Part shown: positions 30,474 to 46,152 of the stretch, in pieces
How positions within the stretch are numbered: position 1 is the first letter of the stretch
Layout of the letters: every line of letters starts with the position of its first letter
NCBI GenBank assembly: GCA_965368975.1
Contig: CBDUPA010000010.1
Span: 160,001 to 224,000 of the forward strand
Length of the DNA: 64,000 nt
Reading direction: 5' to 3'
Source: an uncultured bacterium
GTDB taxonomy: Bacteria > Acidobacteriota > Thermoanaerobaculia > Multivoradales > JAHZIX01
Program-made: the position numbers and the translations under genes
Notes under the pieces: model-generated
What the model was told of the DNA's origin: nothing
What the model saw: only the letters and a program-made list of their open reading frames with translations
Databases searched by the model: none

Positions 30474-31696
30474 GCCGCATCGCTTGCCTCTGCACCCTGC
30501 TCTCTGCTTCTCTGCTCCTCGCCCTCCTGCTCCACGCTCCGTCCGCGGCCGCCCAGGACGCTCCGCGCTTCTTCCAGGACGGCAAGGTCTCCCTCGACCT
30601 GCGCTACCGCGTCGAGTCGGTCGACGATGATCGCCAGGCCAAAGACGCCTTCGCCTCCACGTTGCGCACCGCTCTCGGTCTGCGCAGTGCCGAAGTGAAT
30701 GGCTTCAGCGTCTACCTGGAAGCCGAGAATGTCACGGCCCTAGGAAATGAAGACGGTTATCGCAATGCTGGTGCCGGCAGCCTGAACAATGGCGTCAGCG
30801 GCCGGCCCGTCGTGGCCGATCCGGAATTGACCGAGGTCAACCAAGCGTACGGCCGCTATCAACGCGAGGGCCTGCAACTGACTCTGGGCCGCCAGGAGAT
30901 CTTGCTCGGCGATCAACGCTATGTCGGCGCGGTCGGCTGGCGTCAGAACCACCAGAGCTTCGACGCTCTACGTCTCGAGTGGAAGGCCAGTGATCGGTTC
31001 CGTCTCGACTACAGCTTCGTCGACAACACCAATCGCATCTTCGGCGACAACAAGCAGATGGCCAGCCACCTGCTCTACCTTCCCGTGCAACTGACAGCTG
31101 ACGTTCAACTCACCGCCTATTCTTTTCTCCTCGACTACGATCGGCCCGCTGACGCGCACCTCTCCACGGCCACCTTCGGGGCCGAGTTGAGCGGCAAGCT
31201 GGCTGCTGGTCAGCTACGTTTCGAGGCCGAGTATGCCAGCCAGCAGGACCACGCCGACAACCCGAATCGCGTGCGGGCGGACTACCTGAAACTGAGCGCC
31301 GGCACATCGCTGGGCTCAGGAACTGGAGGAGTCAACCTCGACGTCGCCTACGAAGTCCTGGAGGGTAGCTTCGAAGACGGTCGTTTCCTGACACCCTTGG
31401 CGACCTTACACAAGTTCAACGGCTGGGCCGACCTCTTCCTGGTGACACCACCCCAGGGCCTGGAAGACCTCAGCATCAGTCTGGCCGGTAAGCAGGGACA
31501 AGTCGCCTGGAGACTCACCTGGCACGATTTCCAGGCCGAGAGCACCAGCATCGACTACGGCCAGGAAATCGACGTCCTGCTCACCTACAAAGCGCCATGG
31601 GGACAGACCTTCGGCGTCAAGGGAATGTTCTACGACGCCGACGATTTCGCGGCGGACATCGCGAAGGTAGCGGTGTGGTCAGGGTTCCGGTTCTGA
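30470..31696 (+). CDS. Outer-membrane beta-barrel, alginate-export (AlgE-like) family
   Basis: Signal peptide; 'LRYRVE', 'NQAY', 'GRQEI...QRYVG..GWRQN.QSFD', 'LATLHKFNGWAD'; C-terminal Phe. Confidence 0.75.
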   Translation: MSRIACLCTLLSASLLLALLLHAPSAAAQDAPRFFQDGKVSLDLRYRVESVDDDRQAKDAFASTLRTALGLRSAEVNGFSVYLEAENVTALGNEDGYRNAGAGSLNNGVSGRPVVADPELTEVNQAYGRYQREGLQLTLGRQEILLGDQRYVGAVGWRQNHQSFDALRLEWKASDRFRLDYSFVDNTNRIFGDNKQMASHLLYLPVQLTADVQLTAYSFLLDYDRPADAHLSTATFGAELSGKLAAGQLRFEAEYASQQDHADNPNRVRADYLKLSAGTSLGSGTGGVNLDVAYEVLEGSFEDGRFLTPLATLHKFNGWADLFLVTPPQGLEDLSISLAGKQGQVAWRLTWHDFQAESTSIDYGQEIDVLLTYKAPWGQTFGVKGMFYDADDFAADIAKVAVWSGFRF

Positions 31697-31887
31697 GGCA
31701 GAGCGAGCTCTGACTGATTGGCCGTGCTTTCGTCGAGGTAGAACTTCGGCCTTCCAGCGGCGTACAGAAAGCAGATGACTTCGCCGTTGACGTCAACGAA
31801 GTACCGGTTGGACCGGGGCTTCGGCCAACGTTGACTACCCTGAGCCTACAAGCTCGACCTTCGACTCACTCTGCTCTGGAGACCACA

Positions 31888-32058
31888 ATGAAGAAATCCT
31901 ATCGACACACGCGCAAGAAGCTCAGCCTGCACCGGGAAACGCTGCACGAGCTGGCTTTGATCGAGGTGGAGGGTGGCACCGGCACGACCACAACCACCCT
32001 GACCCTGACGACCATCTATACCCGTTCGGACATCTTCCCCGAGTGCATTGTGGTCTGA
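31888..32058 (+). CDS. Putative RiPP (lanthipeptide-like) precursor 1, 56 aa
   Basis: GGAG RBS, ATG at 31888; MKKSYRHTRKKLSLHRETLHELALIEVEGG|TGTTTTTLTLTTIYTRSDIFPECIVV; own terminator; leader shared with 40894..41127. Confidence 0.72.
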   Translation: MKKSYRHTRKKLSLHRETLHELALIEVEGGTGTTTTTLTLTTIYTRSDIFPECIVV

Positions 32059-32078
32059 AACCTGCCGCTAGAACAGGA

Positions 32079-32113
32079 AACCCCGCCGAGCAGGAGCCTC
32101 GTTTGGCGGGGTT
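32079..32113. terminator. Hairpin between precursor 1 and the convergent amylase gene
   Basis: aaccccgccgagc...gtttggcggggtt. Confidence 0.6.
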
Positions 32114-32166
32114 CTCTCGTCTGGGACCGAAGGCCTGGTTTTTCAGGCGAGTTCGTGCTTCCGCCG

Positions 32167-35100
32167 TCAGAGTGAGCCATCCAAGACCTGCAGGGCGTCC
32201 GCCAGCTCCAGCACTCGGTAGCCTGAAAGTTGCTCCGCCGCGGCCAAGCCCTCGATAATCGCAGCCGCATGCTGCAACTCCGAATCATCCCTTTCCGTCT
32301 CGTCTTCGACTGCGGCCAGTTGAACAGCCGCCGTGGCAGCCAACCACCAGAGCAGCTCGGCGAACTCCTCCTGGCCGAACCAGTCGACCTCATCGAAACG
32401 GTTGATGCCGAGGAAGCGGCGGACGTCAGGGTCCTGAAGCCAGATAGCGGCGTCGAAGCTGCGCCACCAACGTGGACGACCGGCGAGCAAAGAAACGGCA
32501 CCAGCCTGGATCTCGGCAGTCTCCGGCGCGACACCGAGGTCGAGCAGAGTGTCACGAACGACGCGATCGAGCAGCCACGTGTCGAAGAGCTCGCGGCTGG
32601 TCAAGCCACTATCGTCGGGGTCCAAGAGACGTCCTAGCGGATGCAGGACTATCCAAGCAGCCAGAGAAAAACGGCCAGCGGGCGCCGGAGCAAATCGCAG
32701 CAAGGTGTCGAGTGGGGTCTCGGTAGCGCTCCCTTGGGAAATCTTCGCAGAGGATGCTGGTGCACCAAGCACCGGCACCGTCGCTGCCGGCTCGTCGCGG
32801 TCTGCCATGATCCCAGGCAACGGAGTCCCAGGCGACGGAGTCCCAGGCGACGGAGTCCCGGGTACCGTGTGCTCCGGCAGAGTGTGCAGACGTCGCAGTA
32901 GTGTCAGGATCTCTTCGACCATCGACTCCACCTCGGTGGCCTCTTCCCCGGGCGTCTCAGCGTCGAGCGCTTCAGCGTCGCGAGTCTGAGCATCACGCGC
33001 CTGAACATCTACAGCAGCCTCTGGGACCACCTGCGCAGTAGCGTCGTCCGCTTCTCGCAGTAAACGCCGCACCGCGGCTAACGCCTGGTTCAGTTCGGTG
33101 CGCACCGCCTGGAGTACCTCGACTTCACTCTTCTCTGGCGCCTCTAGAGGACCCAACCACAACCGTCGCAAGGGCTCCGCGCCCAGCAGGCGGCGCAGCG
33201 GCTCCTGCACCGGTGCGGCACGCAGTTCGGCCAACGCGTCGTCCAGACTGGGCACGCCTCGAATACCAATCATCTGCCAGAGGCGCTGATAGCGGCCGGC
33301 GGCGTCATCCGTGACCTCGTGTAGGTCGACCAGGACGCGACGCTCGTAAGGGCCGAGGCGTAGGGAAAAGCCTCGCATCACGACTTCGCTACTGGGGCGC
33401 AGGTATTCGCGGCCTTCGATCAGATCGCGGGCCAGCAAGAAGCGTCGGCCTGGCCCCTCCACACTTCCGGCTCCGGGGCGCAACTGCAGCGCTTCGCCGA
33501 GCGTCGAGTGCACCAGGACCCCTTCTCCACCGTCCACCTTCGCGCGCCAGGCGACCGAGTGGTGTGCGTACCCTTCGGTAAACGCCGGTGTGTTGTGCAC
33601 GAAGACCAGCGCTGCCTCCTCGTCGTAGCGATTGGAGAGCGCATAGACATCTTCGTTCACGCTGCCGTCCGTGCTCTGGAAATTGTAGAGCCGGAAGTGC
33701 GTGACCTCCGCGAAAATCCGGCGCAACAGTAGCAGCGGTACGATCTCATGCTCATGGCGTTCGATCAACTCCGTGTCGACAGCCTCGTCGTGGTAGGCAC
33801 GGGCGTACTCCATGCCGTACTTCTCGCGCAGCCCCTCGAACTGGCCATGGCCGAACATCGGTAGTCCGGGCAGAGTCGCCATCAGCGTGCAGACGCAGAA
33901 GTACTTCTCGCTCGTACCGACCTGCACCGCCGCCGGCTCTTCGTCCGGTGTTGTCAAATAGTTGACGAATCGCTTGAGCACTTCCGGATCGAATTCCAAC
34001 GTGTTGCGCAGAGTTTGACGGAACTTGGCGTTTTCCTCGTCGCGCAGCATGTGCATGAAGGCACTGTTGTACACCCGGTGCATGCCCAGCGTGCGCACAA
34101 AGTACCCCTCCATCAGCCAGAAGGCCTCGGCCAGCAGCAGGGTGTCCGGCACCTCAGCCGCAACACGGTCGACTACCTCACGCCAGAACTCCTCTGGGAT
34201 GCACCGTTGGAAGGCCTCCTCCGAGATGGCATGCTCGGCGCGCGACGGGATCGCCCCTCCCTGACCGGGCTTGGGATACCACAGGCGCTGGATGTGCCGC
34301 TTGGCCAAGGTCATGGCGGCGTCGAAGCGGATCACCGAGAAGCGGCGCGCAACATTCAGGATAGTCTGAATCACCGCTTCGCGGGCGTCCGGGTCGAGGT
34401 AGTCCAGCTGGGCAGTATCGTTCCAAGGGATCGAGGTGCCGTCGTTGCCGTGGTAGACGTAGCGCACCTCGTCCGTACTGACGTCCCGGCGCTGGAAGAC
34501 GACCGCAGCGTCGGTACGGTCGAAGTAGTGGTCCTCTAGCCGTACCTCGACGCGTGCATCGTCGCACAGGTCCTCACCGGTGAAGCGATAGTTGGGATAG
34601 GGACTGTACGGCAGGGACAGGAACCGCTCTGGATGCTTGACGATCCACTCCGAGTCAATACCGGTGTGATTGGGCACCATGTCGCACGCCAAGCGGATGC
34701 CCAGCGCCTCGGCGCGCCGGCGCAGATCGTCCCAGGCATCATCCCCGCCCAGCGTCTCGGCGACGCGGTAGGACCGTAGCGAATACGCCGACGATGCCGC
34801 CTCTGGGTTGCCACACAGCTGCTTGACTCGCTGCGACGCTGGACTCCGTTCCCAGATCCCGATCAACCACAAAGAGTTGAAACCACGGCGGGCCAAGCGG
34901 TCGAGTTCGGCGTCGGGGATCTGGTCGAGGCGCTCTATGTCGGTGCCGTACTCGACGCTCAGCTGATGCAGCCAGACATACGTGTTCTTGGCCAGCAGCA
35001 CGACTTCGGGCATCCAGTCTCGATCCTGACTGAAATGCTCCTCGTCGTCGTCCTGGCCAGCGTAGTCATTGACCGGCGGAGGTCCCGGCGGTGGCCCCGG

Positions 35101-35967
35101 AGCCGCTCCCGCCGACCGAAACGAGGGCTTGGACTCCTCCTTGATCACGTCCATGGCCACCAGCAAGCGATCGCTTTGCCGCTCGGACCAACCGCTCCCT
35201 AGCCAGCCACTATCCAGGAGCCAACGGAGCTGTTCGGTCAATGACTCCGGAGCCTGCTGGATCGGCTCCAGCAGGGCGTCGAAGAGGCTCAGGGTCGGGG
35301 CACGGTCGCTTCTTGACACTGCACCAGCGTCCGGACCCGTTTCTATAGCTGGCGGCATGCCTTCGAAGAACTCGCCCAGACTCCCTACGATCTCCCGGTA
35401 GCCCACATCAGCTTCCAGCTCCGCATCGTCGAACAGTTCAGCTAGCGGGTCGAAGGCCGGATTCTGGTTGGCCAGCCACAGCATCAGCAACTCTTCGAGC
35501 ACGATCTGCCGGTGAGATACTCCGGCCGTCTCCTGCTCCAAGTACTCCGCGACCGTCAACTCACCCCGAACCACCGGCATCGAGGGAAAGAGTTCCAAGA
35601 ACCGCCGCAGAGCATGCTCGACCCGATGCTCGCCGAAACGAAGCTCTAGCCAGGACAGCGCCTCGCCCACGACGTCGCCGTCATGCCGCTGCCGGTACTG
35701 GGCGAACAGATGGTGCCAGAGTTCGTCGATCAAGCCGGCCGCATTGAGCGCGCCCGCACTGATCCCCCGCTCCGGATGGCGCAGGACATCCCGCTCTTGG
35801 TTGATTCGCTGCACCAACTCCCGCGCCGCACCCAGGTTGGCAACGACGATATTGCCGTGAAGCGAGAACAACAGCTCATCGACGCCATAGCGCTCTCGGG
35901 CACCTTTGGAGATGTGCAACTCCCTCACCACCTGCCCATAGGCTCTGGGCTGCCACCTCTCTACCAT
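32167..35967 (-). CDS. Large alpha-amylase family (GH13) protein
   Basis: DMVPNH (region I), RFDAAM (nucleophile), LAEAFW (acid/base), TTPDE, LPGLPMFGHGQ. Confidence 0.85.
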   Translation of the reverse strand: MVERWQPRAYGQVVRELHISKGARERYGVDELLFSLHGNIVVANLGAARELVQRINQERDVLRHPERGISAGALNAAGLIDELWHHLFAQYRQRHDGDVVGEALSWLELRFGEHRVEHALRRFLELFPSMPVVRGELTVAEYLEQETAGVSHRQIVLEELLMLWLANQNPAFDPLAELFDDAELEADVGYREIVGSLGEFFEGMPPAIETGPDAGAVSRSDRAPTLSLFDALLEPIQQAPESLTEQLRWLLDSGWLGSGWSERQSDRLLVAMDVIKEESKPSFRSAGAAPGPPPGPPPVNDYAGQDDDEEHFSQDRDWMPEVVLLAKNTYVWLHQLSVEYGTDIERLDQIPDAELDRLARRGFNSLWLIGIWERSPASQRVKQLCGNPEAASSAYSLRSYRVAETLGGDDAWDDLRRRAEALGIRLACDMVPNHTGIDSEWIVKHPERFLSLPYSPYPNYRFTGEDLCDDARVEVRLEDHYFDRTDAAVVFQRRDVSTDEVRYVYHGNDGTSIPWNDTAQLDYLDPDAREAVIQTILNVARRFSVIRFDAAMTLAKRHIQRLWYPKPGQGGAIPSRAEHAISEEAFQRCIPEEFWREVVDRVAAEVPDTLLLAEAFWLMEGYFVRTLGMHRVYNSAFMHMLRDEENAKFRQTLRNTLEFDPEVLKRFVNYLTTPDEEPAAVQVGTSEKYFCVCTLMATLPGLPMFGHGQFEGLREKYGMEYARAYHDEAVDTELIERHEHEIVPLLLLRRIFAEVTHFRLYNFQSTDGSVNEDVYALSNRYDEEAALVFVHNTPAFTEGYAHHSVAWRAKVDGGEGVLVHSTLGEALQLRPGAGSVEGPGRRFLLARDLIEGREYLRPSSEVVMRGFSLRLGPYERRVLVDLHEVTDDAAGRYQRLWQMIGIRGVPSLDDALAELRAAPVQEPLRRLLGAEPLRRLWLGPLEAPEKSEVEVLQAVRTELNQALAAVRRLLREADDATAQVVPEAAVDVQARDAQTRDAEALDAETPGEEATEVESMVEEILTLLRRLHTLPEHTVPGTPSPGTPSPGTPLPGIMADRDEPAATVPVLGAPASSAKISQGSATETPLDTLLRFAPAPAGRFSLAAWIVLHPLGRLLDPDDSGLTSRELFDTWLLDRVVRDTLLDLGVAPETAEIQAGAVSLLAGRPRWWRSFDAAIWLQDPDVRRFLGINRFDEVDWFGQEEFAELLWWLAATAAVQLAAVEDETERDDSELQHAAAIIEGLAAAEQLSGYRVLELADALQVLDGSL
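32811..32860. repeat. 15-bp tandem repeat x3 within the amylase CDS (PGTPS repeats)
   Basis: tcccaggcaacggag / tcccaggcgacggag / tcccaggcgacggag. Confidence 0.85.
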
Positions 35968-36047
35968 GTGCTATTTTCTTGGCTCCGCATTCCGTGCCCA
36001 CATTAGCAGAGACCCCGAACCCGGCAAAGCCGACAAGACGTAGAAGC

Positions 36048-38348
36048 ATGAAGCAATTTCGATCCCTTCTCTTGACAGCTATGAGTAGCTTCTTCTGCCT
36101 CTGGCCCTTGCAGTCGGCAGCTCAGGAGGTCATGACCTTCACCGCGTCAGATCCTCTCCGTGAGCAGCAAGTCAATCAGTTCTTCCAGCACCATCTGCTT
36201 GGCGGAGCAGGAATCTCGCTGCTCGACCCGACTGCTTTCACTTGGCGCGAATGGAGCGCACTCACCCTTGGACCTGTGGGTTGGATCGGTTCTAGTCAGA
36301 ATGTATTGTCCAGCCTCGGAACCTCTCTGATCGAGAACTCGATGACCGATTCTGGCTATGTCTGGAGGTCCGGTGCCGAACCTGGTGGTTGGAACTTCCC
36401 TAACTACACGATGGCCCCCGAGTACCTCACGGGCTACACGTTCGACCAAAACGGTAATACAGAGGGCTGGAGCCTTGTGAACATCCCCAGCAGTACACCT
36501 CAAGGTGGCATCTGGCAACTCTCGGTCCCGGATCCGGATCCCTGGATGGTCTCTCCTACCGTCAGCGTGGATCCCTTCCACGCTCAGTTCCTGAGAGTTG
36601 ACATGGCGTCCAACTCGGCCAGCGACGTTGGACAAGTCTTCTGGAAGAGAACGACGGACTCGGGGTTCAGTCAGGAACGTTCTCTGCCTTTGACCGTCCG
36701 CAACGACGGCGCAATGCATCGCTACTACGTGCCTATGCACGAACATCCTCTCTGGACGGGCACTATCCGGCAGATTCGTATCGATCCGACATCGTCGGGT
36801 GCGAGTGGAGAAACCATCTCGATAGATCGAATCTCATTCGAATACGACGGCCGCATGGCCACCACTAGCGCTATCTATGCGTTGGCAGCTTGGCGCTACT
36901 ACAGTTGGACTGGAAACCAGTGGATCTTCACTTCCACTAACCAGACGCCCCAAGGCAGTATCTTCGACCGAGCCAGACTCGCCGTACAATTCTTGATGTC
37001 TCAGCTCGACGGCTCGGTCAGTAGCAGTGACTTAGCAAAGGCTCACATCATTCTCGTTCCCTGGGCCGGACACGACGGCCGACCAGGAAAGATCAACGGA
37101 ACTCTCAACAAGGGACACGGCCTCCAATCACAGCATTGGATCGACAATCTACCCATCGGGCACGAGAGTGCCCACGCTACTGTCTTCTACTATGCCGCCG
37201 TTCGAGCTCTAGCCGAGCTCGAGAGAGTTCGAGAAGCGCATCCCGGCTGGGGAGTTGCTGCCAACCCGTTCGGCTACACCGCTGCTTCGCTCGAAGCGAA
37301 GGCTTCTGCGATCCAAGACAGCCTGCGCAACAACTTCTGGTTGGGAGGCAAGGGGCGCCTGATGGCATGCCGAGATATTGACAATGTCATCAGGGACCCG
37401 GGCTTGATTCCACTGAATCTGGAGGCCATCTTCTACGAGGCGATCGATGACTTCCGAGCAGACCGGGTTCTGGAGTGGCTGAACGGTGAAAGGCAGGTCA
37501 GCACAGACACCTCTCAGGGAAGCGATCTCTACGCTTGGAGACTGGCACCCAGAGTCACGACAGTTCCGGTGGACGACTGGTACATCTGGCCCATGTACCA
37601 CTGGTTCGGCCTGAACACAGCTCCGGGATTTGGCCAGCAGCTCGCCAACGGAGGAAGTTCTCTGCACCTAACGTTCTTCGACATTTGGAGCCGGATTCGG
37701 CATCGAGGAGCAGACAACGCCTGGAGCCGGTTCGTTGCAGTACTCGACTGGTTTCAGGAGACCCAGAACGCGGGTGGTTACGACGCCTACTACAATGTGC
37801 ATCCAGGAACCCCTCAATGCACCCTCGACCCGAGCGAAGGTATCGGAACCCTCGGCGTGAACTGTGAGTTTCCCGAGTCCGTGCTCGCACCTCTGAGCTT
37901 TCTCTACGGCTTCCTCGGAATCACAGCGACGGCTGAGAACCTGACGATCGATCCGGCGCTACCGGCAGACCTGACCTACGCGGGAGTCCAGAGACTCTTC
38001 TTCCGCCAGCATTTCTACGACGTAACCGTATTTCGTGATGCGATGTCACCCGTACGCATTGCGACACACGCCGGTCCGGACTTGCCTCTCCCCAATGCTC
38101 CTCACGCTCTCCCGATTCGAATTGGTGGCCTGCAACCGAACTCGTCCTATTCGTTGGAGGTCACGAACCTGGACCTTGGTTCGACGACAGTTGGCAGTGT
38201 CGCCTCAAGCATCGACGGTTTTCTCGAGCTAGCAATCTCGATGCCCGCAAATGCACAGTTCGTTCTCCGCAAGGGGCAGGAAAACGCCATTTTCTCGGAC
38301 GACTTCGAGTCCGGAGATCTCTTTGCTTGGGCGTTGGTATCGAACTAG
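36048..38348 (+). CDS. Secreted glycoside-hydrolase-like protein (probable (alpha/alpha)6 fold with CBM-like insert) with C-terminal IFSDDFESGD motif
   Basis: Signal peptide; beta-sandwich-like block (WTGTIRQIRIDP); helical block (FWLGGKGRL..CRD; FPESVLAP..FLYGFLGI..LTIDPALP). Confidence 0.55.
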   Translation: MKQFRSLLLTAMSSFFCLWPLQSAAQEVMTFTASDPLREQQVNQFFQHHLLGGAGISLLDPTAFTWREWSALTLGPVGWIGSSQNVLSSLGTSLIENSMTDSGYVWRSGAEPGGWNFPNYTMAPEYLTGYTFDQNGNTEGWSLVNIPSSTPQGGIWQLSVPDPDPWMVSPTVSVDPFHAQFLRVDMASNSASDVGQVFWKRTTDSGFSQERSLPLTVRNDGAMHRYYVPMHEHPLWTGTIRQIRIDPTSSGASGETISIDRISFEYDGRMATTSAIYALAAWRYYSWTGNQWIFTSTNQTPQGSIFDRARLAVQFLMSQLDGSVSSSDLAKAHIILVPWAGHDGRPGKINGTLNKGHGLQSQHWIDNLPIGHESAHATVFYYAAVRALAELERVREAHPGWGVAANPFGYTAASLEAKASAIQDSLRNNFWLGGKGRLMACRDIDNVIRDPGLIPLNLEAIFYEAIDDFRADRVLEWLNGERQVSTDTSQGSDLYAWRLAPRVTTVPVDDWYIWPMYHWFGLNTAPGFGQQLANGGSSLHLTFFDIWSRIRHRGADNAWSRFVAVLDWFQETQNAGGYDAYYNVHPGTPQCTLDPSEGIGTLGVNCEFPESVLAPLSFLYGFLGITATAENLTIDPALPADLTYAGVQRLFFRQHFYDVTVFRDAMSPVRIATHAGPDLPLPNAPHALPIRIGGLQPNSSYSLEVTNLDLGSTTVGSVASSIDGFLELAISMPANAQFVLRKGQENAIFSDDFESGDLFAWALVSN

Positions 38349-39742
38349 CTCAGCAAATAAGTGCTGCGAATCCAGGCCAGACAGCACACATTCACCAAGA
38401 TCATCACTACCGCAATGGCAAGCGACCAACGCCAGGAACTCTCCCTGGTCGTCAGCTTCGATTCTTGCAGTCCCCAGCTGGCAAACACTGCGAAGACTCC
38501 CACTGACGGCAAGAGAAAGCGACCTTGTGGTTGGAAGTCCACGCGTAGCAGGAAAAGCAGCAACAAGAGTCCGTTCATTGCCAACGCGGAAAACAGCAAT
38601 GGTCCCAGCACCTGCGGCTTGGCTCGATCCTGTCGAGTCTCCTCGCCGGCCGTGGTCGACCTGGGGGATAGTTCTCGCACCCAACGCACCAGTCCAAAGG
38701 CGATTGCAGTGGTCGGAACGAGGAAGATGAGATAAGACTGCCAGGGCAAGGGCAGATTGAACCAGCCGAACTTGGCCCAGAAGCTCAACCAGACCGAAGC
38801 CAACCAGCGCAGCTCCACGACTCTCTCCAAGGACTCGGCTAGACCTCCGGCATAGCCGGTCGGAGGCGGAGGCCAGAGCGCTCCAAAGCGCCACCAGCAA
38901 AGGCCAAACCAAGCAGCTAGGCCCGCACCAACCGGTAGTGACAACGCAGCGGCCAGTTTCCACCAGCTCTTGCGAAGCCAAACCAGCAACAGCAGCGCGG
39001 TGGGCGCCAAGAGAAAGAAAGCTGTCGCCTTGGCGAAAGGGCCCAGTGCCACCAACAAGCCTGCACCCATCGCGAGCAGCAACGGTGGATCCGAAGCAGC
39101 AACGGTTGCTTCCGAATCGGTTGCCGCCCGTGCCAGGGCGGCGAGAGCAGCTAGAGCGGCGGTTGACAGAGCAATGGCGGCGCTGTCGTTGTTGACAGTG
39201 GCACAGACAAAGAGAAGCTGCGGTACCAGCGCAAAGGTCCACAAGGCCCCGCCGAAGGTGGCAGAGTCAGCGCAAGCGGTCTCCAAGAGCCACATGAGGG
39301 ACGCCACGGTCACCAACCCCCACATCAAGGACAGCAAGCGCAGTACCAGCAGGGGACTTCGCTCTGCCGGCGTCCACGTCATGGGCAAGAAAGCCCGAGA
39401 GCCAGTATTGTCGAAGCGCAGGTCCGGATTGGGCTGTGCTGGAAAGGTGACGCGCTGGAGTCCCACTGTGCGCAGGAGCGTGACACCTAGCCAGTACTGC
39501 AGAGGCGGGTGATGCGCCTGGTAGTTGAAGGCGTCAGGCTGGCCCGGAGGCGCCGGTAGCGTCCCATGGTCGAGCAGGTAACCGGCATAGAAGATGTGAG
39601 CCGCCTCGTCCGGCGCCTCTCCGAGCGGAACGGTGAGAACGTAGCCGACACCGAGAAGCGCGAAGACCGTGAGGATTAGCCAGCGCGGAGGCGATGCGGC
39701 TCGCTCCGCGAGGGTCGGCTCAGGATGCTGCGCGCCGGGCAT
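38345..39742 (-). CDS. GT-C superfamily (DUF2142/PMT-like) membrane glycosyltransferase
   Basis: 'PDEAAH', 'YQAHHPPL', 'LRLLSL', 'VNND', 'FWAKFGW', 'QGRFLLP'; about 11-13 TM segments. Confidence 0.7.
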   Translation of the reverse strand: MPGAQHPEPTLAERAASPPRWLILTVFALLGVGYVLTVPLGEAPDEAAHIFYAGYLLDHGTLPAPPGQPDAFNYQAHHPPLQYWLGVTLLRTVGLQRVTFPAQPNPDLRFDNTGSRAFLPMTWTPAERSPLLVLRLLSLMWGLVTVASLMWLLETACADSATFGGALWTFALVPQLLFVCATVNNDSAAIALSTAALAALAALARAATDSEATVAASDPPLLLAMGAGLLVALGPFAKATAFFLLAPTALLLLVWLRKSWWKLAAALSLPVGAGLAAWFGLCWWRFGALWPPPPTGYAGGLAESLERVVELRWLASVWLSFWAKFGWFNLPLPWQSYLIFLVPTTAIAFGLVRWVRELSPRSTTAGEETRQDRAKPQVLGPLLFSALAMNGLLLLLFLLRVDFQPQGRFLLPSVGVFAVFASWGLQESKLTTRESSWRWSLAIAVVMILVNVCCLAWIRSTYLLS

Positions 39743-40736
39743 CTTCGGCCGTAGAACCACCCTCGGGTACGTGTTCGTGCGCGTGGTAGGAACTGCGCAC
39801 CAGCGGACCGGATTCGCAGTAGGCGAAACCGATCTCCAGCGCGTAGCTCTTGTAGTCCGCGAATTCTTCCGGCGTCACCCAGCGGTCGACCGGCAGGTGC
39901 TTGGAGGTCGGCTGCAGGTACTGGCCGATGGTCAGCACTTCCACCCCAGCATCCTGAATGTCGCGCATGGTGGCGAAGAGTTCGTCTTGGGTCTCGCCGA
40001 TGCCCACCATCACGCTTGTCTTGATGCGCCCCGCGGCGGTCTGTCCCGGCGCGTCGGTCACCACGTAGTCGCCCGCGTCGCGACGCCGGGCGGCTTCGGC
40101 AAGCAGCGCCAGGCTGCGCTCGTAGCGGCTACCCGGCCGAGCCTTGCGGTACATGCGCGGCACGGTCTCCATGTTGTGCGAAAAGATCTCCGGCTGCGCA
40201 CCGAGTACGAGATCCAGCGCTTCCGGAACGCCGCGAAAGTCCGGCGTCAGCACCTCGACGGCACAATGCGGGTTCTCGGTGTGGATCGCTTCGATCACCT
40301 GGGCAAAGTGGCGCGCGCCGCCGTCGGGCAGGTCGTCACGGTCCACTGAGGTGATTACCGCGTGTTGCAGCCCCATCACCCGCACCGCCTCCGCCACGTG
40401 TACCGGCTCGTCGACGTCGACGCCCGCATTGGGACGGCCAGAGGTCACCGCGCAGAAACCACAGCGCCGGGTGCAGATGTCACCCAGAATCATGAACGTG
40501 GCGGTGCCATGCTGGCCCCAGCATTCGTAGATGTTGGGGCAGCGAGCCTCCTCACAGACGGTGTTCAGCTTTAGGTTGCCGATCAGGCGTTTGATCTCGT
40601 GATAGCGCTTCGGTGTCTTGAGCCGAATGCGCAGCCAGTCGGGACGATTGTGGCGTTTCAGAGCCTGGGAGACAGCTGGCGGGTCGGTGTTCGGCGAGGT
40701 GCGGGGAGCACCGATCTGGACGAGGTTCTCGCTCAT
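39720..40736 (-). CDS. lipA: Lipoyl synthase
   Basis: CEEARCPNIYEC, CTRRCGFC, ITSVDRDDL, GQYLQP, VRSSYHA. Confidence 0.96.
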   Translation of the reverse strand: MSENLVQIGAPRTSPNTDPPAVSQALKRHNRPDWLRIRLKTPKRYHEIKRLIGNLKLNTVCEEARCPNIYECWGQHGTATFMILGDICTRRCGFCAVTSGRPNAGVDVDEPVHVAEAVRVMGLQHAVITSVDRDDLPDGGARHFAQVIEAIHTENPHCAVEVLTPDFRGVPEALDLVLGAQPEIFSHNMETVPRMYRKARPGSRYERSLALLAEAARRRDAGDYVVTDAPGQTAAGRIKTSVMVGIGETQDELFATMRDIQDAGVEVLTIGQYLQPTSKHLPVDRWVTPEEFADYKSYALEIGFAYCESGPLVRSSYHAHEHVPEGGSTAEDARRAAS

Positions 40737-40893
40737 GCCGCCAAGTCTACGCTAGGGGTGGGTGGGGGTCTAGTCGCTACGGGAGCTACGGGAACGTCGA
40801 CGGGGCGGAAAGGCGACATGACGTATCATAGGTTATCAATGTGGAGATCACACGGATCTCTACATCTGCAATCTCGCCCCAAAGGAGATCCTG

Positions 40894-41127
40894 ATGAAGA
40901 AACGCAATCGCAAACTCAACCTGCACCGCGAAACCCTCCGTCAGCTCAACGGCACTGCCATCCAAGAAGTTGCAGGTGGGACGCAAGGAACCTGCGCCAC
41001 CTACAACACCTGGGCTATCTGTGGACAACAGTGCGGTAGTGCGAACTGCAGCCTGAACTGCCCAGGCACAGGCGGTGCCTACTCTTACTGCTTCTGTCCG
41101 GAGACCGACACCGTCGACTTCTGCTAA
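40894..41127 (+). CDS. Putative RiPP (lanthipeptide-like) precursor 2, 77 aa
   Basis: AGGAG RBS; MKKRNRKLNLHRETLRQLNGTAIQEVAGG|TQGTCATYNTWAICGQQCGSANCSLNCPGTGGAYSYCFCPETDTVDFC (8 Cys, 10 Ser/Thr); own terminator. Confidence 0.8.
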   Translation: MKKRNRKLNLHRETLRQLNGTAIQEVAGGTQGTCATYNTWAICGQQCGSANCSLNCPGTGGAYSYCFCPETDTVDFC

Positions 41128-41136
41128 AGCTGGTTG

Positions 41137-41171
41137 ATCAATCCCGCCCTGCCATTCAGGGCGGGACTGAT
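41137..41171. terminator. Hairpin after precursor 2
   Basis: atcaatcccgccctg-ccatt-cagggcgggactgat. Confidence 0.65.
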
Positions 41172-41206
41172 GTCTTGCCGTTGATCCCGCTAGGCCTCGT
41201 GGCGGC

Positions 41207-41773
41207 TCAGGTGGCAGCAGCTGGCCAGAGCCAGCCGAAGGTACCGGCAGTGAGCAGGCCGTACACGATGCCGTCGATGATCATACGGAAGACGTTGCCC
41301 CACTTGCGGCCCATCCAGATCGCCTCCGGTGCGATACCTCCGGCGAAGCCGAGGATAGCCGCGGTGCCTACGACCTGGAAGACCTTCAGATAGTCGACAC
41401 CTCGAGGTAGCACCTGGCCCGCCAGGTAGGCGACGAAAACCTGGATCACCAGGATGAAGACGATCCACTGCACCATCGTCTTCCCCATCTGCGGCATGCC
41501 CTTGGGCACGATGGTCAGGAAGCCGACCGGCCCCTCCTTCATGCGGTTCTGCCAGTCTTCACTCTTCCACTCGTCCGGCGACGCAGCAAACGGGAAGCTG
41601 TATTCACCCGGTGGCGTGTCGGCTCCGATGCCAGCACATGCTGCGTCTTCATCTGGCAGCTTGGCCCAATCCCTCTTGTGGAACTGGATCACCATCCAGA
41701 TCAGGTTGCTGGCGATGAACACGAAGACCGTCGAGACGACGATCGGCAGCCAGAGTTCGGTCAACGGAACCAT
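41207..41773 (-). CDS. Hypothetical membrane protein (about 4 TM)
   Basis: GAGGAGG RBS; hydrophobic segments; coding-like codon usage. Confidence 0.75.
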   Translation of the reverse strand: MVPLTELWLPIVVSTVFVFIASNLIWMVIQFHKRDWAKLPDEDAACAGIGADTPPGEYSFPFAASPDEWKSEDWQNRMKEGPVGFLTIVPKGMPQMGKTMVQWIVFILVIQVFVAYLAGQVLPRGVDYLKVFQVVGTAAILGFAGGIAPEAIWMGRKWGNVFRMIIDGIVYGLLTAGTFGWLWPAAAT

Positions 41774-41910
41774 AGGGGGCCTCCTCTGCGTGGGTCCGGA
41801 TATCCGGAGGGATGGGACGAGCCAGCCCCTCTAGGGAGGAACAGAGCTCGCGGTGATCGATCAGAATTGATCGAAGTGTAGCAGATCGATCACCATGAGC
41901 CGCAGACGCA

Positions 41911-41947
41911 AATCAGCCCGGCGACGCCGAAGCGTCCCGGGCTGATT
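41911..41947 (-). terminator. Terminator downstream of rpoC
   Basis: aatcagcccgg...ccgggctgatt inverted repeat. Confidence 0.65.
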
Positions 41948-41973
41948 CTCTGAATAGCAGCGGAAGGCGAAAG

Positions 41974-46152
<4,179 letters not shown>

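Follow-up and report, generated by a model that had tools for sequence, protein, structure and literature searches.

We analysed a 64,000-nucleotide stretch of a contig from an uncultured acidobacterium (the window, G000:C10:160001-224000), part of a genome of 7.13 Mb in 59 contigs with 65.4% G+C, and followed two small open reading frames (ORFs) on its forward strand, peptide 1 (31888-32058, 56 amino acids) and peptide 2 (40894-41127, 77 amino acids). Both ORFs are probably precursors (LanA) of class I lanthipeptides, belonging to a set of about 53 such genes dispersed over the genome, and matured by a LanB/LanC set encoded far away from them. That the two are real precursor genes of a scattered leader family we regard as very likely. 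The case is built from what was observed or computed: the genes themselves, the family, its composition, the enzyme inventory, the co-occurrence of leader and enzyme across genomes, and a supportive model of a complex. A first-pass annotation of this DNA had proposed that such peptides are matured in trans by a LanB/LanC pair or a LanM; on the sequence evidence below, its trans-acting LanB/LanC interpretation appears well supported, and a LanM is unlikely as the maturase, because four of five leader-rich relatives lack LanM while all five carry LanB.

Each ORF begins with ATG and carries the Shine-Dalgarno (SD) sequence GGAG 6 nt upstream, at 31878-31881 (+) for peptide 1 and at 40884-40887 (+) for peptide 2. 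The leader of peptide 1 has 30 residues, MKKSYRHTRKKLSLHRETLHELALIEVEGG (31888-31977, +), and is followed by a Thr-rich core of 26 residues plus stop, TGTTTTTLTLTTIYTRSDIFPECIVV (31978-32058, +), with 1 Cys and 13 Ser/Thr. In peptide 2 a leader of 29 residues, MKKRNRKLNLHRETLRQLNGTAIQEVAGG (40894-40980, +), precedes a core of 48 residues plus stop (40981-41127, +) that holds 9 Cys and 15 Ser/Thr and reads CGSxxCSxxC ... CFCPETDTVD. Both Cys and Ser/Thr occur in each core. Stable hairpins lie 3' of the genes: behind peptide 1 at 32068-32124 (+), with its strong stem at about 32079-32113 and a folding free energy of -32.1 kcal/mol (z -2.77; 2 of 200 shuffled sequences were equally stable), and behind peptide 2 at 41142-41166 (+), with a 10-bp G+C-rich stem, a 5-nt loop and -28.1 kcal/mol (z -3.87; 0 of 200). 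Read from the DNA, the two genes are plausibly monocistronic. In all these features they agree with the first-pass annotation, which had described two tiny genes at these positions, each with a ribosome-binding site and a hairpin of its own.

The two leaders align along MKK..KLxLHRETLxxL..GG, as had been noticed in the first pass, and each carries the box followed by GG (LSLHRETLHEL...GG in peptide 1, LNLHRETLRQL...GG in peptide 2). The earlier assignment of this leader to the class I lanthipeptide type is borne out by the NCBIfam profile NF038153 (lant_leader_L1a, 'class I lanthipeptide'), which peptide 2 matched with 23.7 bits and E 4e-5 over profile positions 1-32 of 32, above the cut-off of 22 bits, and peptide 1 matched below the cut-off. 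Nif11 and NHLP Pfam profiles gave no match at E<=10. Peptide 1 was recovered by a leader profile specific to this genome at E 5e-8, of which peptide 2 is the top match, and by a library-wide profile of the same leader (A2) at E 6e-9, peptide 1 being itself one row of A2.

Further copies of the leader are abundant in the genome, as the first-pass annotation had anticipated. Its proposed regular expression, K[LI].L.[RK]ET[LI]..L.{5,12}GG, was run on the six-frame translation and returned 17 places; neither the reversed genome nor the mirrored pattern gave any (0 each). From these 17 matches we built the genome-specific leader hidden Markov model (HMM), iterated three times over 119,434 six-frame ORFs of at least 30 amino acids, and 53 distinct ORFs matched it, 51 at E<=4e-5 and the two weakest with leaders that are plain by eye. 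NF038153 gave 45 matches in the genome at E<=10, 16 of them above cut-off; 15 of these 16 fall within the 53-member set, and the remaining one, C4:306704, does not. Members are spread over 19 contigs and 36 loci (copies less than 3 kb apart merged), 24 of the loci being solitary genes and 12 being groups of 2-4. With two members omitted that have no Met start in range, 51 of 51 begin with ATG and 50 of 51 have a GGAG-type SD sequence within -18 to -3. Chance ORFs or a non-coding RNA were considered as explanations and rejected, given these starts and SD sequences, the two null searches of 0 and 0, and the lack of any Rfam match in a scan of 31000-42000.

Compared in pairs across the 53 members, leaders have a mean identity of 0.50 and cores one of 0.297, where shuffled cores give 0.29; the N-terminal box is the best conserved part of the leader. 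The cores of the family are therefore as variable as the first pass had supposed, with the qualification that this does not extend to orthologues, as described below for peptide 2. Relative to the ORFs of at least 400 amino acids in the same genome, which served as the background composition, the cores are enriched in Cys (11.7% vs 1.0%), Thr (11.2% vs 5.0%) and Ser (8.4% vs 5.5%). Cys occurs together with Ser/Thr in 52 of 53 cores, the exception being a truncated copy with the core SVNK at C11:198921; two or more Cys are found in 45 of 53 and a single Cys in 7 of 53, and Ser plus Thr equal or exceed Cys in 52 of 53. The number of Cys is even in 26 cores and odd in 26, and this equal parity disfavours disulfide-only peptides. 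Taken by composition, the core chemistry of the family fits lanthipeptides.

We searched the genome for the enzymes that would act on these cores. LanB, LanC, LanM and C39 profiles found no match anywhere on contig C10, in keeping with the first-pass observation that the window lacks a modifying enzyme and a transporter; the LanB and LanC that it had expected elsewhere are encoded on contig C13. There the single full-length LanB of the genome (1159 amino acids, C13:48.6-52.1 kb; PF04738 558 bits, PF14028 223 bits) is flanked by two LanC genes and by two precursors of the same leader type, which are placed between LanB and LanC. No protease or transporter is present in this cluster. A 639-amino-acid protein without Pfam family upstream of LanB was considered as a further component and set aside, as it has no counterpart at the LanB loci of 6 relatives. 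The LanC family has two further genes, at C13:186 kb and C1:561 kb; a lone precursor stands 205-260 bp upstream of each, and LanB is missing from the vicinity. A cyclase requires a dehydrated substrate, so a LanC beside a lone precursor without LanB implies a dehydratase acting in trans. The zinc-ligand motifs WCxG and CHG are intact in three of the four LanC proteins, those encoded at C13:45156-46469, C13:46546-47820 and C1:561433-562878. Upstream of the fourth (PF05147, 93 bits), at a distance of 205 bp, is a lone precursor that has one Cys.

Only 4 of the 53 precursors adjoin a Lan enzyme, and 49 lie away from any. An all-against-all BLAST of the 1,012 ORFs within ±5 kb of the precursors disclosed no recurrent neighbour that might be a maturase, no family being present at more than 4 of 36 loci; the families that do recur, namely ABC ATPases, Ser/Thr kinase-TPR proteins with ECF sigma factors and MacB/FtsX permeases, are large paralogue families. 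ABC-transporter ATPase genes stand beside or near precursors at 4 of the 36 loci (C12:61198-62121, C1:497458-499002, C1:36371-37363 and C8:152282-153061), two of them immediately adjacent. Their role might be in immunity or export, or they might be there by chance, the paralogue family being large.

Peptide 2 is tied to the LanB cluster through its core. Among the 52 other cores, the closest to it is that of the LanB-adjacent LanA at C13:47889 (local score 65, z 4.5, reached by 0 of 300 shuffles), with which it shares the pattern CGSxxC[ST]xxC ... C[FI]CPxTDTV[DE]. This likeness indicates that peptide 2 is a dispersed paralogue of the structural gene of the cluster. The earlier description of both peptides as orphans with unrelated cores thus holds between the two window peptides but not for peptide 2, whose core has a relative beside LanB. 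In an index of 5.8 billion proteins, peptide 2 has one homologue, P0002, at 78% identity, with 43 of 48 core residues identical and all 9 Cys kept, compared with 18 of 29 in the leader. Since the core is better kept than the leader, the peptide 2 core is under constraint, the reverse of the pattern among paralogues.

To the extent that a model can speak to it, recognition of the leader by LanB is also supported. We modelled LanB residues 1-800 (alignment of 10 LanB) together with peptide 2 residues 1-45 (alignment of 19), and the complex had an interface score (ipSAE) of 0.70, where the best of 3 controls had 0.00. Of 80 solved complexes, 58 attain the same mark, as do 2 of 110 mismatched pairs. 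Runs agreed in at least 36% of contacts, with a predicted local distance difference test (pLDDT) of the partner of at least 44. The confident contacts place peptide 2 residues 3-5 and 7-20, which comprise the conserved box, on LanB residues 244-268 and 290-314, and the model therefore supports binding of the leader box to LanB.

The association of leader and LanB extends beyond this genome. Among 31 genomes (G000 and 30 relatives), NF038153 matched at E<=0.01 in 6, G000 included; 0 of 5 genomes of the same family matched at this threshold. In a sample of 401 genomes of the phylum, 19 had leader matches, with the largest number in G000 (19-21) followed by G011 and G257 (11 each). Lant_dehydr_C, found in 43 of the 401, was present in 18 of 19 leader-positive genomes and in 25 of 382 leader-negative ones (cross-tabulated by hand, the unpublished G179 included). 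The leader-positive exception is G248, with one 20-bit match in a 32-amino-acid frame. Searched with the A2 profile at E<=0.01, five leader-rich relatives gave 37 (G011), 30 (G030), 26 (G257), 15 (G144) and 7 (G007) matches, these counts being profile matches of which some lie in long frames or contain stops. In G144 all 15 matches consist of the leader followed by a Cys/Ser/Thr-rich core, and they are dispersed over a 3.48 Mb contig with only one within 10 kb of LanB. Library-wide, the A2 profile matched 7,906 of 1.84 billion cluster representatives at E<=0.001, so the leader family is large and widespread.

LanB orthologues in the relatives are 45-49% identical to the LanB of this genome, and their surroundings differ. 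One locus in G007 contains a C39-ABC exporter (peptidase-containing ABC transporter, PCAT), six LanA, LanC and LanB; a second G007 locus and that of G418 contain PCAT, LanA, LanC and LanB; those of G257 and G144 contain PCAT, LanC and LanB, and the nearest 6 kb or so hold no leader; and in G011 LanB stands alone. The nearest named LanB relatives come from Acidobacteria metagenome-assembled genomes (44-55% identity), Saprospiraceae (36%) and Pedobacter (30%), and two of these nearest named relatives have a leader peptide of this type next to LanB. We consider it somewhat better than an even bet that G000 and at least four other genomes of the same phylum run a class I combinatorial library, in which a single LanB and a few LanC act in trans on dozens of precursors that have nothing but a leader in common.

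Three PCATs are encoded elsewhere in the genome, as a search suggested in the first pass had aimed to find. Each has C39, ABC_membrane and ABC_tran domains and an HlyD-type partner, and an outer-membrane factor is present at one of the loci. All three retain the aligned Cys (CG) and His (HF) motifs, which we take to be catalytic. The cluster-linked PCATs of the relatives share 54-60% identity with those at C13:122159 and C8:192185, and 35-36% with the third. For each of the two more similar PCATs, the HlyD-type partner (L016:5172-7157, +; L017:8619-10619, -) contains a GAF domain, which suggests ligand-regulated export. An operon of OEP, HlyD and PCAT genes (L015:3950-15778, +, which is C13:93949-105777) includes two extra ABC proteins of about 1035 amino acids, and next to it are two peptides (C13:106751-106918, -, and C13:108999-109151, +) whose double-glycine leader is of another, acidic kind and follows the pattern ...L(E/S)..(L/A)E(E/D)VAGG.

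These components suggest a route by which the peptides could be matured. The leader box KLxLxRETLxxL would dock on LanB, of which the genome has one full-length copy (on C13), at its N-terminal domain, and this LanB would dehydrate Ser and Thr of the core through tRNA-Glu-dependent glutamylation and elimination. One of the three LanC cyclases with an intact zinc site would then add Cys thiols to form (methyl)lanthionine rings, and one of the unlinked C39-ABC exporters, together with HlyD, most likely C13:122159-124468 or C8:192185-194602, would cut after GG and export the product. Transcription, modification, cleavage, export and bioactivity are what we infer for both peptides. That it is the C13 LanB/LanC set which would mature both of them in trans is, judging from sequence, likely.

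Several observations weigh against this reading. Peptide 1 reached 13.2 bits where the NF038153 cut-off is 22, matching only profile positions 1-20; its core holds a single Cys; and a homologue search found only peptide 1 itself, in a word-indexed search, which depends on 5-residue words in common and whose reach is low at a length of 56 amino acids. Neither window hairpin contains a T-run, and because of this a consensus terminator scan of both genes flagged neither. No upstream motif common to the family was found, exact 6-8-mers in 50 upstream regions showing no excess over shuffles. The complex model used self-made alignments that included paralogues, and it may pass by its likeness to a solved LanB-leader complex. 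The sampled genomes are related, and the co-occurrence count therefore overstates their independence. Among the enzymes, the LanC-like gene at C13:186394-187704 (L002:3395-4705, +) lacks WCxG and CHG, and the genome contains other dehydratase-like genes, namely a split LanB (C12), a Lant_dehydr_N array (C9) and a LanM (C18).

The points on peptide 1, namely its place below the cut-off, its one Cys and its lack of a homologue, lead to one alternative, that it is a silent or decaying copy without a product while the rest of the family functions. The unusual Thr run of its core and the presence of at least one clearly truncated member, the SVNK copy on C11, would agree with this. We consider it unlikely all the same: its ATG, SD sequence, full leader box, GG and downstream hairpin are all intact, single-Cys cores are found in 7 of 53 members, and the homologue search had little reach at this length. 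It is less probable again that the maturase is an enzyme other than the C13 set, whether the class II LanM of C18, the split LanB of C12 or an unrecognised enzyme reading the same leader. GG leaders are classically class II, a LanM ORF of 1191 amino acids stands at a contig edge, two leader peptides at the very start of C16 could be linked to it across an assembly gap, and the split LanB (SpaB_C 367 amino acids plus Lant_dehydr_N 921 amino acids) is seen without a precursor of its own. Set against this, LanM is missing from G011, G257, G007 and G144 and present only in G030 among the five leader-rich relatives, whereas all five have a full LanB and Lant_dehydr_N. The single Lant_dehydr_C match in each of G011, G257 and G144 leaves no second elimination domain in these genomes. 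In G000 itself two precursors are located between LanB and LanC, and the precursor neighbourhoods share no gene family at more than 4 of the 36 loci.

The peptides could also be double-glycine secreted peptides, bacteriocin-like or signal-like, that are cut and exported by a C39-ABC exporter without being dehydrated, their Cys being in disulfides or free. The leaders end as such peptides would, with GG in 39 of the 53, GA in 7, AG in 4 and AA in 3; the three PCAT systems with HlyD partners are at hand, and one of them has the acidic GG peptides of another leader type alongside. A PCAT does not need an N-terminal leader box. Here that box is the best conserved part and the part that the model places on LanB; the leader co-occurs with LanB across genomes, Ser/Thr are enriched along with Cys, and odd and even Cys counts are equally frequent, peptide 1 having one and peptide 2 nine. 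We therefore regard undehydrated products as very improbable, and retain class I lanthipeptide precursors as the preferred assignment for both window genes.

Pinensin and PedA of Pedobacter lusitanus are systems of the class I group whose leaders combine LxLxKx5L with GG. The link of this leader motif to class I enzymes and C39 proteases was described in Bacteroidetes by Walker et al. (2020; PMC7268733), who used a window of ±7 genes, so that precursors far from a LanC domain fell outside. Compared with the class I L1a type (NF038153) as presented there, the system described here has the same leader box and GG end, Cys/Ser/Thr-rich cores, a full-length LanB and a LanC cyclase, and a C39-type protease/exporter is expected; relatives of G000 carry the canonical PCAT-LanA-LanC-LanB cluster. 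It differs in that 49 of 53 precursors have no adjoining Lan enzyme and the exporters are unlinked, and in that the host is acidobacterial and not of the Bacteroidetes, with Arg often in place of Lys in the box.

By architecture, the closest analogue is the class II prochlorosin/synechococcin system. For ProcM a review cites 29 prochlorosin precursors (PMC12328550), and for SyncM 79 SyncA substrates are given (PMC9872173). Both share with the present case one enzyme set (here a putative one) for dozens of precursors whose leader is conserved and whose cores are unrelated, with many precursors encoded far from the synthetase, and a GG-type cleavage site. Unlike them, G000 has a separate LanB and LanC (class I, tRNA-Glu dependent) in place of a bifunctional LanM, leaders that are not of Nif11 type, several cyclase paralogues, and another phylum and habitat. 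With PCAT double-glycine peptides the family has in common a leader whose GG or GA end is preceded by hydrophobic residues, and a genome with PCAT, HlyD and outer-membrane factor; the extra N-terminal recognition box of LanB type and the lanthipeptide-like core composition set it apart.

The leader type and its class I link are thus already in print and in NCBIfam. The architecture, in which one LanB and few LanC go with unlinked exporters and with about 50 scattered precursors, and which returns in several genomes, was not found in print, nor was any description of scattered class I precursor libraries, in a literature search that left most subscription journals and supplements outside its reach; supplements may list such precursors. 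Natural lanthipeptide libraries in which one enzyme serves many substrates are on record for class II (ProcM, SyncM). If the proposed system is real, the library strategy evolved more than once, with an independent LanB/LanC counterpart of the prochlorosins, and a naturally generalist, substrate-tolerant LanB/LanC pair would be available for peptide engineering. Mining confined to a few genes around LanC would then undercount class I products, as it would here for 49 of the 53 precursors. The family would add about 50 Cys-rich candidate scaffolds from a poorly cultured phylum.

Peptide 1 is flanked by an Alginate_exp-like porin and a 1266-amino-acid alpha-amylase-family protein, and peptide 2 by lipoyl synthase (Radical_SAM and LIAS_N domains) and a 188-amino-acid protein without Pfam family. 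[quoted passage not shown] Lipoyl synthase was located in G001, G002, G003, G005 and G011, and its neighbours are not conserved within the 1.5 kb flanks compared. A sigma-70 consensus scan around the window genes found no promoter. Outside the window, 3.2-5 kb past its end, are three further tandem leader peptides (L004:3235-5005, +, which is G000:C10:227235-229005). They adjoin a 1031-amino-acid protein with NACHT and FGE-sulfatase domains (L004:3-3095, -), the reading frame of which has not yet closed where the locus ends on the window side.

The other Lan-type genes of the genome have surroundings of their own. The split LanB (L042:7132-11004, +, which is C12:117131-121003) has its SpaB_C-only ORF first and its Lant_dehydr_N ORF second, and adjoins a transglutaminase-like gene, with no LanC or precursor seen nearby. 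The LanM ORF lies at the start of contig C18 (1-3760) and the two leader peptides at the start of C16 (153-615), and the assembly gaps at these contig starts mean that their adjacency cannot be told. The genome also contains three long LanC-domain proteins. At C9:118.5-128.8 kb (L043:4538-14818, -), four consecutive ORFs of 811-905 amino acids form an array with Lant_dehydr_N matches across it; the two scanned ORFs match Lant_dehydr_N only and have no elimination domain. By analogy, the array may encode peptide-aminoacyl-tRNA-ligase-like enzymes; an ATP-grasp/CoA-ligase gene lies beside it.

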